Shown: positions 3,604 through 9,465 of the stretch, piece by piece
How positions within the stretch are numbered: position 1 is the first letter of the stretch
Layout: every line of letters starts with the position of its first letter
IMG/VR virus record: IMGVR_UViG_2684622552_000002
Strand: one strand, 5' to 3'
DNA: 27,680 nucleotides
From: a virus
Taxonomy: Duplodnaviria > Heunggongvirae > Uroviricota > Caudoviricetes
Translations under genes and position numbers: made by a program
Notes under the pieces: generated by a model
The model's database searches: none
The model's input: only the letters and a program-made list of their open reading frames with translations
Told to the model about the DNA's origin: nothing

Positions 3604-3978
3604 ATGCTCATAGATTTGGTTTTACCTTACCCGCCGACGGTGAACACTTACTGGCGACGCCGTGGCAGCACATATTTTATCTCGGAGGAGGGAAAGCGTT
3701 ATCGCCGGGCTGTGGCGCTTATTGTTCGCCAGCAGCGGCTGAAATTAAGCCTGTCCGGAAGGCTGGCGATAAAGGTGATTGCAGAGCCACCGGATAAGCG
3801 TCGTCGCGACCTGGACAATATCCTGAAAGCACCGCTGGATGCGCTGACGCATGCGGGAGTGTTAATGGACGATGAGCAGTTTGATGAAATCAATATCGTT
3901 CGTGGTCAGCCAGTATCTGGAGGACGTCTGGGGGTGAAGATTTACCCCATAATGCATGAAGAGCAGGTCAAAAAATGA
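3604..3978 (+). CDS. rusA: RusA-family Holliday junction resolvase, 124 aa
   Basis: Translation contains the RusA hallmarks YPPTVNTYW and PDKRRRDLDNILKAPLDALT; stop overlaps Q start (ATGA). Confidence 0.85.
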   Translation: MLIDLVLPYPPTVNTYWRRRGSTYFISEEGKRYRRAVALIVRQQRLKLSLSGRLAIKVIAEPPDKRRRDLDNILKAPLDALTHAGVLMDDEQFDEINIVRGQPVSGGRLGVKIYPIMHEEQVKK

Positions 3979-4796
3979 AACTGGAAGATTTACCGAAATA
4001 CTACTCCCCAAAATCCCCTTGCCTGACCGATGCATCGGCCTCAACGTCAAAAGATGCGCTGAGTATCACTGATGTGATGGCCGCGCAGGGCATGACACAG
4101 AATCGGGCTGAGATGGGGTTTTCTGCGTTCCTGGGGAAAATGGGCATCAGTATGAATGACAGGGCGCGGGCAACAGAATTACTGGCAGATTATGCACTCA
4201 GTCGGTGCGATCGTGTGGCGGCGTTGAGAAAACTTCCGGCAGAAATAAAACCGGTAGTGATGCGCATTATGGCTTCGTACGCTTTTGAGGATTATGCCCG
4301 CAGCGCTGCGAGTAAAAAGCAGTGCCCTTGTTGCTATGGGGAAAAATTTATTGAAAGCGTAGTTTTTACAAACAAGGTCCAGTATCCGGATGGTAAGCCG
4401 CCGGTATGGGCAAAGTGTACGAAAGGTGTGCATCCGTCTTACTGGGAAGAATGGAAAAAAGTCAGGGAGGTGGTAAAAGTTGCCTGTCCGGAGTGTAGCG
4501 GAAAGGGTGAGGTTTCCACCGCCTTTAAGGATTGCCGTGGGCGTGGTGTCGCCATTCACCGTGAAGAGTCGGTAAAACGTGGTATGCCTGTTATCAGAGA
4601 CTGCCAGCGTTGTGGTGGTCGTGGCTATGAAAGACTACTATCAACGGAGGCATTTAATGCTATATGCGAGGTGACAAACCAGATAACACGCGCGTCATGG
4701 GAAAAAACAGTTAAGAAATTCTATGATGCGCTAGTGACCCGGTTTGATATTGAAGAAGCATGGGCTGAGCGGCAGTTAAAAAAGGTAACTAGGTAA
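3975..4796 (+). CDS. quuQ: Late-gene antiterminator Q (Qin/QuuQ-like), 273 aa
   Basis: Position immediately upstream of the late promoter, terminator, tRNAs and lysis genes; multiple CxxC zinc-binding motifs (CPCCYGEKF, CPECSGKGE, CQRCGGRGY). Confidence 0.75.
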   Translation: MKLEDLPKYYSPKSPCLTDASASTSKDALSITDVMAAQGMTQNRAEMGFSAFLGKMGISMNDRARATELLADYALSRCDRVAALRKLPAEIKPVVMRIMASYAFEDYARSAASKKQCPCCYGEKFIESVVFTNKVQYPDGKPPVWAKCTKGVHPSYWEEWKKVREVVKVACPECSGKGEVSTAFKDCRGRGVAIHREESVKRGMPVIRDCQRCGGRGYERLLSTEAFNAICEVTNQITRASWEKTVKKFYDALVTRFDIEEAWAERQLKKVTR

Positions 4797-4801
4797 CAAG
4801 G

Positions 4802-4830
4802 TTGATTTTTCCGGAATCTGTGGTAAATTC
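4802..4830 (+). promoter_or_regulatory. Putative late promoter PR' (-35 TTGATT, 17-bp spacer, -10 TAAATT) with presumed Q-utilisation region
   Basis: Located 6 bp after the Q stop codon and about 50 bp upstream of a strong terminator, the classic PR'/qut/tR' arrangement. Confidence 0.5.
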
Positions 4831-4876
4831 GTCATAACGATGGGCGTTTTATGCCTGACGTTAGAAGAGTTTCTAC

Positions 4877-4901
4877 AACCCGCCGCCGAGCGGGTTTTTT
4901 A
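4877..4901 (+). terminator. tR'-like rho-independent terminator of the short late leader transcript
   Basis: cccgc-cgccga-gcggg hairpin followed by TTTTTT. Confidence 0.65.
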
Positions 4902-4939
4902 TTGTGAAATTAATTACGGACCGTTATTATTCTGCTCCC

Positions 4940-5015
4940 GGCCCTTTAGCTCAGTGGTGAGAGCGAGCGACTCATAATCGCCAGGTCGCTGGTTCAAATC
5001 CAGCAAGGGCCACCA
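4940..5015 (+). tRNA. tRNA with CAU anticodon (tRNA-Ile2/lysidine type or tRNA-Met; ileZ-like)
   Basis: 76-nt cloverleaf: acceptor ggccctt/aagggcc, D-arm tagctcagtggtgagagc, anticodon loop ctCATaa, T-arm ggttcaaatcc, 3' discriminator A then CCA. Confidence 0.85.
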
Positions 5016-5115
5016 TCACAAACCGCCATTAGCTTATCAGGAAGAGCAGGCGACACGATAACAGGGTTGTTGGTGCGGGGGCGGGTCCCCGATGGCGGTC
5101 CATTATCGGTATTCA

Positions 5116-5192
5116 GCGTTGTTAGTTCAGCCGGACAGAGCAATTGCCTTCTAAGCAATCGGTCACTGGTTCGAATCCAGTACAGCGCGCCA
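5116..5192 (+). tRNA. tRNA-Arg (UCU anticodon; argN/argO-like)
   Basis: 77-nt cloverleaf: acceptor gcgttgt/acagcgc (one G-U), anticodon stem attgc/gcaat with loop ctTCTaa, T-arm ctggttcgaatccag, 3' CCA. Confidence 0.85.
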
Positions 5193-5377
5193 TATTCATT
5201 CTTCCAGATTCCTTCCGGCAGAGCCTTATACTGGAATATACCTGGCTCAGGATATTGTTGAAAATATTATATGTTTGTCAAAAATAAAAGTTCTGTTAAG
5301 TATTGATTGAGTGTTTGTTATACGGTCTAATGGTTTTTTCAGTATTAAATATTTATCATTCATATGGTGTGGGTAGA

Positions 5378-5656
5378 GTGAATATTGATGAGGCGTCGGG
5401 GTGTTTCATCCTTAGGCAGCGTATTGATATAGTCAATGCAGCACGAGCAAAGGCCTTCAGCCGTTTGACAGTTTTGTTCTGTACTCCTGATCGTCTTTCG
5501 GGAAGAGACGTTATTCTTCTGAATAGTGATGCTATACAGAGGGTTTGCGATGAGTTCATGGTTGCTAATTCAGAATTATTTGCTCTTGTTCAGGAGTACA
5601 ACAGAATAGCCAGGACCTGTGGTATGGATGAACTTCGGATTACTCATCTGGGGTAG
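5378..5656 (+). CDS. Hypothetical protein (orphan ORF; start uncertain: TTG 5303, ATG 5330 or GTG 5378)
   Basis: Only long ORF in this AT-rich stretch; no recognisable motif; no convincing RBS for any candidate start. Confidence 0.35.
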   Translation: MNIDEASGCFILRQRIDIVNAARAKAFSRLTVLFCTPDRLSGRDVILLNSDAIQRVCDEFMVANSELFALVQEYNRIARTCGMDELRITHLG

Positions 5657-6130
5657 ATACATATCTGGATTATCACCTGTTACGGTAAAAAGTGATTGCT
5701 TACTGTTTTTGTGAATGGCATTGCAGCAGCCGGATAATATCAGTGCTGGCTGACGGTGTGCTGGTAGCGGGTGTGGTGGTTGTTGCTTTCCCGTTGCTGA
5801 AAAAGAAAACGCCAGACTGTTAGCCGGGTATTAGTTAGCGGGAGAAATTTTTAAATACTTCACAATTCAGGCGGTTGACTGTTGTCTGGTTTGCGGGGAG
5901 TTTGTTAAAAGAAACTGGCATGGTGAATCCCCCTGTGCGGAGGGGCAATCAGCGAGTAGGTATATGGGATAATCGCGGATTCAGGTGCTGGTACTGAATT
6001 CACCGGGAGGCACCCGGCACCATGCACTTCAATAGATTCTCTCCACATTATGGATATTCTTTCAGAATATCCCACGCAGACTTTGTGTAAATGTTAACAA
6101 ATGTGCGTTTTATTTGATCTGATTCGCTGT

Positions 6131-6160
6131 TTGAGCGTCCAAAACAACGGTATATATAAT
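6131..6160 (+). promoter_or_regulatory. Putative sigma70 promoter for the TolA-like lipoprotein genes (-35 TTGAGC, -10 within TATATATAAT)
   Basis: TTGAGC followed 16-18 bp later by TATATA/TATAAT, about 30 bp upstream of the lipoprotein 1 RBS (GAGG) and ATG. Confidence 0.35.
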
Positions 6161-6189
6161 CCTTTACTATATGACATATGTGAGGAAAA

Positions 6190-6618
6190 ATGGGTTTTCG
6201 TAGCGCATCAATTCTTATGTTGATTATTAGTGGGATTATTATCGGGTGCACTGATACTGTATCGACAAATTATCATGACCGTACATCATATTACTCCGAT
6301 AAAGCAATAGAGACACAGTATGTGAGTTCATCTGAACGTACTTCTGATGTTAGTGAGGATATCCGTCTGTATGCCCATCAAATCAAGAGCGCCATCGAAA
6401 AACAGTTCGGGGATGCGAGTAAGTATTCAGGAAAAGAGTGTACACTGAGAATGCATATGGCCCCGAATGGCCTTCTACTGGAGGTTAAAAGAGAAAGTGG
6501 AGACCTCGATTTATGTCGTGAAGCGATGAATGCGATAAAGAATGCTGATATACCTGCCCCCCCTTCGCCGGAAGTATATAAAGTATTTCAAAATGGGGTG
6601 CTGGATTTTAAACCCTGA
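6190..6618 (+). CDS. Lipoprotein with TolA C-terminal (domain III)-like domain, 142 aa
   Basis: N-terminus MGFRSASILMLIISGIIIGC-TD is a signal peptide with a lipobox (IIGC; +2 Thr). C-terminal 80 aa (QIKSAIEKQFGDASKYSGKECTLRMHMAPNGLLLEVKRESGDLDLCREAMNAIKNADIPAPPSPEVYKVFQNGVLDFKP) aligns closely, by recall, with the C-terminus of E. coli TolA (QIKSAIESKFYDASSYAGKTCTLRIKLAPDGMLLDIK...IPKPPSQAVYEVFKNAPLDFKP). Confidence 0.8.
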   Translation: MGFRSASILMLIISGIIIGCTDTVSTNYHDRTSYYSDKAIETQYVSSSERTSDVSEDIRLYAHQIKSAIEKQFGDASKYSGKECTLRMHMAPNGLLLEVKRESGDLDLCREAMNAIKNADIPAPPSPEVYKVFQNGVLDFKP

Positions 6619-6768
6619 TATTTATTGTTTTGTAATAAACGGTTTCGGCTTAGGTTTGTTCTGACACAGCTACGGCACTGAGCTAAATTTAGCGGATAGT
6701 CAGCTCTGAGCCAGTGGCGGACGTAACAACTACTATTGCTGAGATTTTAATGGATTGAGGAGCAAGAA

Positions 6769-7164
6769 GTGGGATTAAAGAAAATCGTTATGTTGACTTT
6801 TTGGGTCGGTTTTGTTGCGGGATGCACACCTTTACACCCTTCAGATTGCCACAAAACTACTGCTACAGGTAGTTGCAGTTCAGGACGCTGGGATGATCAG
6901 GATGAATGGGGGGCGCAAGCGCGGGGAATCAGAGCTGCAATTAATGCCAAACTTGATGAGCCGCATAACTGGAAAGGGAAAAAATGCAGGTTGCATATGG
7001 AATTCTCTCAGGATGGCACGGCGTTAAAAATATCTACCAGTAACGGTGATAAAGCCTATTGCGAAGCGATAAAGTCCGCAGCTCATAAAGCCAAATTTCC
7101 GGCCTTCAACAATCCGGAAGTCTACAGAGATTTTCAGAAATCTGGCTTTGACATGCGAGGTTAG
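6769..7164 (+). CDS. Second, more divergent TolA domain III-like lipoprotein (paralog), 131 aa
   Basis: GTG start 6 nt after GAGGAG; MGLKKIVMLTFWVGFVAGC-TP signal peptide with lipobox; C-terminal region keeps the same scaffold as lipoprotein 1 and TolA (GKKCRLHM...DG...GD..YCEAIKSAAHKAKFPAFNNPEVYRDFQKSGFD). Confidence 0.75.
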   Translation: MGLKKIVMLTFWVGFVAGCTPLHPSDCHKTTATGSCSSGRWDDQDEWGAQARGIRAAINAKLDEPHNWKGKKCRLHMEFSQDGTALKISTSNGDKAYCEAIKSAAHKAKFPAFNNPEVYRDFQKSGFDMRG

Positions 7165-7288
7165 CTCTTCAATTACTATATCTCATTCATAGCAAACTGA
7201 CAGATTTGATGATGTTCTATATACGAAACCTGTGATGTCAAGTCTGAGCTAATACAAATAAACATAATATCAGAGAAATACATTTTAT

Positions 7289-7312
7289 TAGCTCGCTACG
7301 GCGAGCTTTTTA
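7289..7312 (+). terminator. Rho-independent terminator closing the lipoprotein cassette
   Basis: agctcgc-tacg-gcgagct hairpin followed by TTTTT. Confidence 0.6.
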
Positions 7313-7415
7313 TATTGCATCGTCTCCAGCATATATATCAATTAAGGCTCTGATTGATGTGTCTGAAAGCCTACACATAATAACTATGCCATCCGTTCCG
7401 TGCGGAGGTGAGGCT

Positions 7416-7631
7416 ATGAAATCCATGGACAAAATTTCAACAGGCATTGCCTACGGCACCTCCGCAGGCAGTGCTGGCTACTGGTTTTTACAGCTGCTCG
7501 ATAAAGTCACACCCTCACAGTGGGCAGCAATAGGTGTGCTGGGTAGCCTGGTATTTGGCCTGCTGACGTACCTGACAAACCTTTATTTCAAGATTAAAGA
7601 AGATAAGCGCAAGGCTGCGAGAGGTGAATAA
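7416..7631 (+). CDS. S: Class II holin (phage 21 S-type pinholin) with dual-start motif MKSM, 71 aa
   Basis: [26 protein letters not shown]...[17 protein letters not shown] matches the S21 pinholin; two in-frame Met codons (antiholin and holin starts). The GTG 7359 extension in the track is unlikely. Confidence 0.85.
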
Positions 7632-8128
7632 TGCCTCCATCATTACGAAAAGCCGTTGCTGCTGCTATTGGTGGCGGAGCAATTGCTATAGCATCAGTGT
7701 TAATTACTGGCCCAAGTGGTAACGATGGTCTGGAAGGTGTCAGCTACATACCATACAAAGATATTGTTGGTGTATGGACTGTATGTCACGGGCATACAGG
7801 AAAAGACATCATGCTCGGTAAAACGTATACCAAAGCAGAATGCAAAGCCCTCCTGAATAAAGACCTTGCCACGGTCGCCAGACAAATTAACCCGTACATC
7901 AAAGTCGATATACCGGAAACAATGCGCGGCGCTCTTTACTCATTCGTTTACAACGTGGGTGCTGGCAATTTCAGAACATCGACGCTTCTTCGCAAAATAA
8001 ACCAGGGCGATATCAAAGGCGCATGTGATCAGCTACGTCGCTGGACATATGCTGGCGGTAAGCAATGGAAAGGTCTCATGACTCGTCGTGAGATTGAGCG
8101 TGAAATCTGTTTGTGGGGTCAGCAATGA
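7631..8128 (+). CDS. R: SAR (signal-anchor-release) endolysin, T4-lysozyme-like glycoside hydrolase, 165 aa
   Basis: N-terminal Gly/Ala-rich weakly hydrophobic SAR segment ([20 protein letters not shown]) followed by a lysozyme core; start overlaps holin stop (TAATG). Confidence 0.9.
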
Positions 8129-8586
8129 ACAGAGTAACCGCGATTATCTCCGCTCTGGTTATCTGCATCATCGTCTGCCTGTCATGGGCTGTTAATCATT
8201 ACCGTGATAACGCCATTACCTACAAAGCCCAGCGCGACAAAAATGCCAGAGAACTGAAGCTGGCGAACGCGGCAATTACTGACATGCAGATGCGTCAGCG
8301 TGATGTTGCTGCGCTCGATGCAAAATACACGAAGGAGTTAGCTGATGCGAAAGCTGAAAATGATGCTCTGCGTGATGATGTTGCCGCTGGTCGTCGTCGG
8401 TTGCACATCAAAGCAGTCTGTCAGTCAGTGCGTGAAGCCACCACCGCCTCCGGCGTGGATAATGCAGCCTCCCCCCGACTGGCAGACACCGCTGAACAGG
8501 ATTATTTCACCCTCAGAGAGAGGCTGATCACTATGCAAAAACAACTGGAAGGAACCCAGAAGTATATTAATGAGCAGTGCAGATAG
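8125..8586 (+). CDS. Rz: Rz i-spanin (inner-membrane spanin subunit), 153 aa
   Basis: [20 protein letters not shown]-terminal TM anchor plus coiled-coil periplasmic domain; ATG overlaps the R stop (ATGA). Confidence 0.85.
8345..8527 (+). CDS. Rz1: Rz1 o-spanin lipoprotein embedded in the +1 frame of Rz, 60 aa
   Basis: [20 protein letters not shown] lipobox plus proline-rich mature region ([16 protein letters not shown]), matching lambda Rz1. Confidence 0.85.
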
Positions 8587-8617: not shown

Positions 8618-8911
8618 TTATTGTGAGCAATATACACGCGCTTCCAGCGGAGTATAAATGCCTAAAGTAATAAAACCGAGCAATCCATTTACGAATGTTT
8701 GCTGGGTTTCTGTTTTAACAACATTTTCTGCGCCGCCACAAATTTTGGCTGCATCAACAGTTTTCTCCTGTCCAATTCCCGAAACGAAGAAGTGATGGGT
8801 GATGGTTTCCTTTGGTGTTACTGCTGTCGGTTTGTTTCCAACAGTAAACGTCTGTTGAGCACATCCTGTAATAAGCATTGCCAGAGCGGCAGAAAACAAC
8901 ATTTTTTTCAT
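8618..8911 (-). CDS. bor: Bor lipoprotein (serum-resistance, Iss-like), 97 aa
   Basis: Minus-strand translation MKKMLFSAALAMLITGCAQQTF...EARVYCSQ; the upstream extension in the track is not needed. Confidence 0.9.
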   Translation of the reverse strand: MKKMLFSAALAMLITGCAQQTFTVGNKPTAVTPKETITHHFFVSGIGQEKTVDAAKICGGAENVVKTETQQTFVNGLLGFITLGIYTPLEARVYCSQ

Positions 8912-9270
8912 CTTATTATCCTGCATTGTTAAAAACGGCAGAATCCTATGTGACAACAATTAAACGATAGTTAAATGGATTGATGAAAATTAAAACTATA
9001 TAGGTGGATGCTCAGCCTATTGGAGGAGGGGGGCACTCAGAATCCTGTGGAATGAAATAAACCGCTCTTTCTGTCCATTACCCTTTTAGCTGCGCTGTAT
9101 CGTCGCCGTATTCCCGCATTAACCATGACCGTAGCCCGACGGGGAATTCCTTCTGCGTGAGTGTGCGGGAATAATCAAAAACGATGCACACCGGGTTTTA
9201 CTGTGCTGACAGACGCAGGGTTACCCTCATAGTCGCTTTTCCGGTGCGATGGTGGAAGAAACCGGGATGT

Positions 9271-9465
9271 TTATTCATCATCACTTTGGATTGATGTATA
9301 TGCTCTCTTTTCTGACGTTAGTCTCCGACGGCAGGCTTCAATGACCCAGGCTGAGAAATTCCCAGACCCTTTTTGCTCAAGAGCGATGTTAATTTGTTCA
9401 ATCATTTGGTTAGGAAAGCGGATGTTGCGGGTTGTTGTTCTGCGGGTTCTGTTCTTAGTTGACAT
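9271..9465 (-). CDS. ylcI: YlcI-like small protein (DUF3950 family), 64 aa
   Basis: 64-aa basic N-terminus MSTKNRTRRTTTRNIRFPNQMIEQINIALEQKG...; matches from memory the small ylcI-type protein found near bor in lambdoid prophages. Confidence 0.55.
   Translation of the reverse strand: MSTKNRTRRTTTRNIRFPNQMIEQINIALEQKGSGNFSAWVIEACRRRLTSEKRAYTSIQSDDE

Follow-up and report, generated by a model that had tools for sequence, protein, structure and literature searches.

We analysed a 27,680-nucleotide stretch of DNA from a Caudoviricetes record (IMG/VR IMGVR_UViG_2684622552_000002), hereafter the window, which holds the late region of a lambda-like prophage. Two tandem genes on its plus strand are the subject of this work: open reading frame 1 (ORF1; 6190..6618), encoding 142 residues, and ORF2 (6769..7164), which starts with GTG and encodes 131 residues, each preceded by a GAGGA-type ribosome-binding site. 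Their recomputed coordinates and neighbouring genes agree with a first-pass annotation, made from the sequence alone, that had placed them between the late-region tRNAs and the holin. That annotation had also read both products as predicted lipoproteins with Thr at position +2 after the lipobox Cys and with the fold of TolA domain III (TolA-III), the first more than 50% identical to the TolA domain and the second diverged on the same scaffold; all of this is borne out by profile matches, structure models and the conservation of the lipobox.

Both proteins match the Pfam family of the TolA C-terminal domain, PF06519, above its gathering cut-off of 25 bits, ORF1 with 82.6 bits (E=2.4e-23; residues 49-140, profile positions 4-96 of 96) and ORF2 with 54.6 bits (E=1.3e-14; residues 44-125, profile positions 10-92 of 96). 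Solved E. coli TolA-III chains are matched at E ~5e-28 by ORF1 and ~5e-9 by ORF2. Residues 55-142 of ORF1 align without gaps to TolA 334-421, with 52/88 identities (59%) and the same C-terminus (...VFQNGVLDFKP in ORF1, ...VFKNAPLDFKP in TolA); ORF2 shares 27/79 identities (34%) with TolA and 25/79 with ORF1. AlphaFold predicts that both proteins adopt the TolA-III fold, with its three helices and sheet of three strands, and the predicted local distance difference test score (pLDDT) is >90 across the domains. The top Foldseek match is a TolA-III structure in each case: 2x9a_B for ORF1 (template modelling score, TM, 0.96; root-mean-square deviation 0.6 A) and 3qdp for ORF2 (TM 0.92; 1.1 A). As in E. 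coli TolA-III (PDB 1S62, 3QDP, 1TOL, 2X9A, 3QDR), the fold comes with a disulfide Cys pair: the invariant C84/C109 aligns with TolA C363/C388. Pfam, NCBI and PHROGs annotation already carries the domain homology, and PHROGs places both proteins in phrog_5772, labelled 'unknown function'.

What sets these proteins apart from TolA is the rest of the chain. Both N-termini begin positively charged and run through a hydrophobic core to a lipobox, IIGC followed by TD in ORF1 (Cys20; MGFRSASILMLIISGIIIG-C-TD) and VAGC followed by TP in ORF2 (Cys19; MGLKKIVMLTFWVGFVAG-C-TP). At the level of pattern matching, both show the signature of outer-membrane-sorted lipoproteins ([LVI][ASTVI][GAS]C without Asp at +2), and the lipobox Cys is invariant across 16 homologues; sorting of ORF1 and ORF2 to the outer membrane is thus a prediction from these signals. 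The signal peptide is followed in ORF1 by a disordered tether of ~30 residues and TolA-III at ~51-142, and in ORF2 by a conserved Cys-loop/acidic-aromatic segment (20-47) and the diverged TolA-III at ~45-131. AlphaFold leaves residues 1-50 of ORF1 and 1-41 of ORF2 unstructured, the 28-34 residues after the signal peptide being modelled with low confidence and no helical domain. Neither transmembrane domain I, by which TolA is coupled to TolQ-TolR, nor the long helical domain II is present. With neither an inner-membrane anchor nor domain II there can be no coupling to the TolQR motor and, unlike E. coli TolA, these short-tethered proteins are predicted to hang from the outer membrane and to be unenergisable.

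In keeping with this layout, neither protein qualifies as a full-length TolA equivalog. Against NF007065 (cut-off 213) ORF1 scores 107.8 bits and ORF2 53.7; against TIGR02794 (cut-off 59.45) ORF2 stays below at 47.2 bits, and ORF1 passes with 75.5 bits but covers only model positions 265-362 of 362. NCBI names ORF1 'tolA' because this C-terminal 97-position match exceeds the TIGR02794 cut-off, and judged by these profile scores the RefSeq name is a systematic over-annotation. The plain name 'tolA', and a match that covers just the final 97 positions of the model for the whole protein, are also what non-functional tolA fragments riding along in a mosaic prophage would give. We regard such an origin as extremely improbable and consider it refuted: each gene has a start codon and ribosome-binding site of its own and encodes a lipoprotein signal peptide, which tolA lacks, a lipobox is present in 50/70 short representatives of the family, and the ratio of nonsynonymous to synonymous substitution rates (dN/dS) is 0.08-0.37. 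In addition, host tolA is undetectable at the DNA level: a sensitive search returned matches only in the 897/5426 complete E. coli genomes that carry ORF1-type domains, and not tolA in all of them. This rules out a recent capture of host tolA and makes ORF1 an old copy.

Both ORF1 and ORF2 are real genes under purifying selection. Compared with a 66%-identical variant, ORF1 has a dN/dS of 0.24 in the domain and 0.51 in the signal peptide and tether; ORF2, compared with plasmid, Enterobacter and Serratia copies, has 0.08-0.12 overall. Constraint in ORF2 is stronger in residues 20-47 (window 6826-6909; TPLHPSDCHKTTATGSCSSGRWDDQDEW, with two extra Cys) than in the domain, dN/dS being 0.02-0.09 against the pO157-like plasmid and Serratia copies; against Enterobacter, synonymous sites are saturated and no ratio can be computed. 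These low values indicate that the segment has a function of its own. Its C-x-K...C loop recurs in family representatives down to ~37% identity; the segment has no match in the PDB and its AlphaFold confidence is low. We considered the conserved SSGRWDDQDEWG as a mimic of the colicin E9 TolB box and found no support for it, as a search of all PDB sequences with the linker gave no colicin.

We then compared the surfaces by which TolA-III is bound. At beta-3, the TolA-III sheet is extended by a strand from filamentous-phage g3p N1 or from the TolB N-terminus; colicin A adds its strand at the other edge, onto beta-2 (PMC7391070), with contacts at L375-P380, K368, K379, K396 and L392 of TolA (PMC3365938). 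The ORF1 family resembles E. coli TolA-III at both edges. At the colicin A site most contacts are preserved: L375, L376, K379 and K396 are kept, D377->E/Q, I378->V and L392->M are conservative, and the character changes only at K368->H/Y and P380->R. The beta-3 edge NxxLDFKP is kept as well (NAPLDFKP in TolA, NGVLDFKP in ORF1), with L as the final residue in 2/6 members and the edge otherwise invariant. Unlike E. coli TolA-III, the ORF2 family lacks the colicin A cation-pi lysines K368, K379 and K396 (replaced by E, S and H/Q), has K in place of L392 and carries the additional Cys-loop segment; at beta-3 it keeps the hydrophobic-Asp-hydrophobic-basic pattern (FDMR versus LDFK). On this pattern, ORF1 seems to copy both edges faithfully and ORF2 to be specialised for beta-3-type ligands, and the two probably differ in the ligands they would catch.

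The first-pass annotation had further described a self-contained, AT-rich insertion at 6131-7312 with a plausible promoter and terminator of its own. The signals do flank the genes. A sigma-70 promoter-like site (TTGAGC-18-TATAAT; 6131..6160, plus strand) lies 30 nt 5' of the ORF1 start and, at 10/12, is the best of 12 sites in a scan of 4700-7700, versus 5.6 +/- 2.2 expected. An intrinsic-terminator-like hairpin (7290..7317, plus strand) lies between ORF2 and the holin gene; its stem-loop at 7290-7307 has 7 bp, including 5 G-C pairs, and a loop of 4, followed by the T-run TTTTTATATTG (-13 kcal/mol, z=-4.19; 0/200 shuffles as stable). No internal terminator was found between ORF1 and ORF2, where the spacer folds no better than shuffled sequence. 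G+C content is 0.36-0.47 across the cassette versus ~0.50 in the flanks. The boundaries of the proposed insertion, however, did not stand. Among 80 IMG/VR viral contigs carrying the cassette at 99% identity, no homology break falls at 6131 or 7312: homology ends on the left at 5999 in 44/80 contigs, or at 5857 with a sensitive search, and on the right at ~7620-7630 (the holin end) in 34/80 and ~8510 (the Rz end) in 26/80, never at the terminator. A discrete insertion delimited by promoter and terminator is therefore rejected, and the mobile unit is larger, from ~5857/5999 to ~7630/8510. Of the features expected of a moron, the cassette shows promoter-like and terminator-like sites and a G+C dip; its homology breakpoints do not coincide with those signals.

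Two further elements belong to this larger unit. One is a small RNA (sRNA) match of the STnc100 family (5889..6079, plus strand; full-length in Rfam, 114 bits versus a gathering score of 47), taken in by the 5857 boundary and located directly 5' of the promoter-like site, which itself always lies inside the shared block. The other is the P21-type holin, linked to the cassette in 80/80 contigs. In the commonest background, a different, shorter ORF occupies the position of the late antiterminator gene Q, there are no tRNAs, and the same sRNA-cassette-holin block follows. The STnc100 match stays with the cassette and holin where the upstream Q region is swapped; in one such background (locus L020, 5125-5311) it scores 83 bits.

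Within the block, the two genes have separate histories. The ORF2 gene module (6732..7166, plus strand) consists of the gene and ~35 nt including the ribosome-binding site, and its DNA is 87% identical in pO157-like plasmids, 82% on the Serratia chromosome and 80% on the Enterobacter chromosome. DNA homology between the window and the 66%-identical ORF1 variant is limited to 6258-6619. These separate spans indicate that the cassette is made of two independent gene modules side by side, with different host ranges, and the earlier view of the two genes as one 'system' has to be given up. The same variant bears on another proposal, that the genes sit in the slot where Stx phages carry stx: it lies alone, directly 5' of nanS-p, in a 933W-type late region (order: Q, TfpB, AraC-like gene, TolA-like gene, nanS-p, DUF1378, DUF826, holin, lysozyme), which supports the proposed position. 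Since ORF2 is missing there, the ORF1/ORF2 pair is not obligatory.

The window genes on either side of the cassette are those of a late operon. Upstream, on the plus strand, lies Q, the antiterminator of late genes (3975..4796), with a tR'-like terminator 3' of it (4877-4896) and then tRNA-Met (4940-5015) and tRNA-Arg(UCU) (5116-5192). Downstream, the lysis module (7416-8586, plus strand) is of the phage 21 type and starts with the P21-type holin S (PF04971; 7416..7631), followed by lysozyme (7631..8128), Rz (8113..8586) and Rz1, embedded in Rz (8345..8527). The lysozyme N-terminus resembles a signal-anchor-release (SAR) segment, and the module may be a pinholin/SAR system. Just 3' of the lysis genes and ~1.5 kb from ORF1/ORF2, the minus strand carries bor (8618-8959), encoding the Bor lipoprotein, a classical lambda moron; with ORF1 and ORF2, the late region of the window therefore contains at least three predicted lipoprotein accessory genes.

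The distributions of the two genes are very different. The whole cassette is present at 99.8% identity in 775 of the 5426 complete E. coli genomes. ORF1-type domains (897 genomes, ~16%) are nearly all chromosomal, come in few variants that are 65-99% identical, and occur only in E. coli/Shigella prophages. Among 50,697 deposited phage genomes a single one carries the cassette, mEp460_ev081 (judging by the name, an evolved derivative of mEp460); there is thus no independent phage biology to draw on. The ORF2-type family is much larger, with 370 clusters. It occurs on pO157-like IncF plasmids, after psiB/psiA/hok (in locus L003, at 4815-5246, before toxB), and on IncK2/Z conjugative plasmids, immediately 3' of the relaxase gene (loci L014 and L015, both at 5815-6246). 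In Enterobacter, Serratia, Citrobacter, K. oxytoca and Raoultella it is found as a single chromosomal gene, at five different sites in all. Because no two of these five genera share the locus and homology does not extend beyond the gene and ~35 nt, ORF2 is not an ancestral core gene elsewhere.

An exhaustive profile search yielded 130 TolA-III representatives at 50% identity, 70 of them 100-175 residues long, to which the lipobox count given above refers. Relatives are encoded in 1299 plasmid records (Klebsiella 660, E. coli 546), TolA-III lipoproteins being found on F-type and I-complex conjugative plasmids and homologues also on IncFII(K) Klebsiella and cloacin plasmids. CloDF13-like Klebsiella plasmids of 10 kb carry a gene for a TolA-III lipoprotein (LTAC followed by K) that overlaps a signal-peptide-bearing TonB_C gene, and the pair is divergent from a bacteriocin/immunity/lysis operon; TolA-like genes on the cloacin plasmid are mentioned in passing in a survey (PMC10269471). 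In Raoultella, the ORF2-type gene lies two genes from a second, unrelated exported TonB_C protein. In Pantoea, a TolA-III lipoprotein gene adjoins the gene of an Exc2-family (entry-exclusion) lipoprotein and, in Serratia, a GmrSD/HEPN pair.

We tentatively favour, at close to an even call, the reading that ORF1 and ORF2 are decoys for Tol-dependent colicins and filamentous phages. As periplasm-facing copies of the TolA C-terminal hub domain tethered to the outer membrane, they would bind, just below that membrane, the TolA-binding epitopes of invaders entering the periplasm: those on group A colicins and bacteriocins related to them, and the N1 domain of filamentous-phage g3p. Invaders would be trapped in an unenergised dead-end complex, and the lysogen or plasmid host would gain broad, partial tolerance. 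Ligand binding and protection by the two proteins are predicted from their domains. The intact domain, the conserved fold and Cys pair, and the purifying selection on both genes fit this reading, as do the residues that ORF1 keeps at the colicin A site and the beta-3 edge, the persistence of ORF2-type genes at places remote from lysis genes, and the moron-like signals, which would allow expression from a repressed prophage. The neighbours of the homologues (orphan TonB_C genes, a bacteriocin operon, exclusion and defence genes, pilus-encoding plasmids) also fit and make decoys more plausible. For filamentous phages that depend on TolA, the pili specified by F-type and I-complex conjugative plasmids serve as primary receptors.

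The affinity of TolA-III for colicin and g3p epitopes is about micromolar. The complex of TolA with TolB is weak, with a dissociation constant of ~40-200 uM (PMC7391070). Given these two affinities, decoys in modest quantity could titrate out invaders while Tol-Pal keeps working. Cells that produce g3p or its N1 domain in the periplasm become tolerant to colicin A, and their uptake of fd falls by 4 logs (PMC10424213). A passage in PMC6195910 (citing Levengood-Freyermuth 1993; Wan & Baneyx 1998) states that TolA-III in the periplasm interferes with Tol function and causes cells to leak. The decoy reading also draws on older laboratory work. Levengood-Freyermuth is said to have found in 1993 that periplasmic TolA-III confers tolerance to colicins E1, E2, E3 and A.

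Several observations weigh against decoys. As isolated TolA-III makes cells leaky, constitutive expression could be costly. The ORF2 family has lost the cation-pi lysines of the colicin A site, and the promoter at 6131-6160 is a candidate identified by motif match. The neighbour associations come from a handful of sampled loci and do not amount to a statistical enrichment. PADLOC-DB v2 gave no match at E <= 0.1 for ORF1, ORF2 or the plasmid TolA-like proteins. Full-text literature searches returned no functional study of natural exported TolA-III proteins, and no characterised phage TolA-mimic lipoprotein either, in line with the first-pass annotation, which knew of none. The literature offered no expression evidence for ORF1 or ORF2 apart from a spurious case: the text of PMC11125564 ties the CP-933O gene EDL933_2012, induced 32-fold by ciprofloxacin, to TolA and colicin import, and we discarded it because the supplement of the same paper lists EDL933_2012 as a tail fibre protein. 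Finally, the Q-dependent late-transcript position before the holin and the constant holin linkage also fit a role in the lytic cycle.

Such a role had been raised by the first-pass annotation as a loosening of Tol-Pal before lysis, and the late-operon position keeps the idea alive. TolA-III lipoproteins made in large amounts from the Q-antiterminated late transcript would compete, in a dominant-negative manner, for the TolB N-terminus and perhaps CpoB; Tol-Pal would be uncoupled and the outer membrane loosened, with leakage or vesiculation before holin triggering that aids the spanin step or cargo release. The place between Q/tR' and the holin, the holin linkage across the 80 viral contigs, the leakiness described in that passage of PMC6195910 and the conservation in ORF1 of the beta-3 edge used by TolB all agree with this, as does the sharing of a slot with stx, whose product needs late transcription and lysis. 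We nevertheless consider a lytic helper quite unlikely. The prophage already has a complete holin/endolysin/Rz-Rz1 set, the promoter-like site and the terminator before the holin suggest an independent transcription unit, and the holin linkage may reflect only the recent common descent of a 99%-identical block. The alternative is weakened further by the ORF2 type, which is mostly not phage-borne: ORF2-type and related lipoproteins are mostly plasmid or chromosomal, with no lysis genes nearby, and such strong purifying selection outside a phage or lysis context indicates that the ORF2-type function is not lysis-specific.

Alternatively, the proteins may have their partner in the carrier cell itself (TolB, CpoB, Pal or a further protein of the outer membrane or periplasm) and tune Tol-Pal, Pal mobility or vesicles, so that changes in serum, bile or phage resistance or in colonisation would be indirect, as in lysogenic conversion of the Bor/Lom type. 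TolA-III is a hub for TolB and CpoB (PMC7391070), and bor lies nearby in the same prophage. ORF2-type genes occupy ordinary chromosomal sites in several genera, and the N-terminal segment of ORF2 is more constrained than a tether requires (dN/dS 0.02-0.09), which suggests a specific partner. However, a different site in each genus together with plasmid carriage is typical of conflict-linked accessory traits rather than of core envelope physiology, and the repeated pairing with orphan TonB_C genes and the bacteriocin operon point to import pathways. Envelope modulation appears unlikely to us; the decoy reading has the best support, with part of the probability left unassigned among the readings.

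If they are decoys, ORF1 and ORF2 would have several relatives in principle. The laboratory periplasmic TolA-III fragment is likewise an isolated exported domain, and according to the same passage of PMC6195910 it competes with native TolA and causes leakiness; it is engineered, soluble and overproduced, whereas the proteins described here are natural, predicted to be lipid-anchored, diverged and carried by mobile elements. Exclusion by filamentous-phage g3p/pIII blocks the same import step by sequestration (PMC10424213), but pIII occupies the host hub, whereas ORF1 and ORF2 would occupy the epitope of the invader and leave the host hub free. Cor, T5 Llp, TraT, Exc2 and the Bor moron are also small lipoproteins of mobile elements that protect their carrier at the envelope, often with their own promoter and terminator. 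Cor and Llp block the outer-membrane receptor FhuA and, to our knowledge, none of the five copies a host periplasmic hub domain; ORF1 and ORF2 have no sequence relationship to them. For the sister system, Howard et al. reportedly described in 2001 periplasmic TonB C-terminal fragments as dominant-negative inhibitors. The principle is the same, and natural TonB_C genes adjoin TolA-III genes at two unrelated loci, although the window has no TonB_C gene. The two TonB_C proteins (locus L002, 5276-5641, 121 residues, Klebsiella plasmid; locus L100, 5140-5475, 111 residues, Raoultella chromosome) are only 33% identical over 42 residues. Stand-alone exported TonB_C proteins may form a parallel class of TonB decoys.

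More broadly, it is possible, though short of an even call, that mobile elements of Enterobacterales deploy exported, motor-less hub domains, TolA as lipoproteins and TonB as secreted proteins, as a general and previously unrecognised layer of envelope immunity. The carriers would be lambdoid prophages, F-type and I-complex plasmids, bacteriocin plasmids and single-gene chromosomal modules, and these periplasmic sinks would intercept Tol- and Ton-dependent bacteriocins and filamentous phages ahead of the energised import machines. Within such a layer, the tandem ORF1/ORF2 would cover two different ligand spectra. Should the proteins act as decoys, prophages and plasmids would have in them a simple, very common way to weaken colicin attack and infection by filamentous phages, with a bearing on colicin and bacteriocin therapeutics, on phage display and Ff-type phages in natural isolates, and on competition between mobile elements; natural TolA-III variants with altered binding edges could then be used in dissecting Tol-Pal interactions. 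Should lysis-time loosening of the outer membrane prove true instead, the lambdoid lysis pathway would gain an accessory step, located where the toxin lies in Stx phages.

A few minor observations concern the surroundings of these genes. In IncFII(K) plasmids of Klebsiella, the gene of the TolA-III lipoprotein has as its neighbour a gene for a thioredoxin-fold periplasmic protein (DsbA/TraF-like, with a CxxC motif and a signal peptide), which in locus L004 lies immediately 5' of it (4229-4777) and might serve the formation of the TolA-III disulfide. In the window, the ~700 bp from tRNA-Arg to the sRNA match (5200-5880) are AT-rich (G+C 0.38-0.46) and without a recognisable gene; the only ORF there (5303..5656; TTG start, 117 residues) has no Pfam match, and other prophages carry different sequence at this place. 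Genes for a DUF968 protein and RusA lie 5' of Q, a DUF3950 gene (9271-9465, minus strand) accompanies bor just 3' of the lysis genes, and the terminase and morphogenesis genes follow the bor region.

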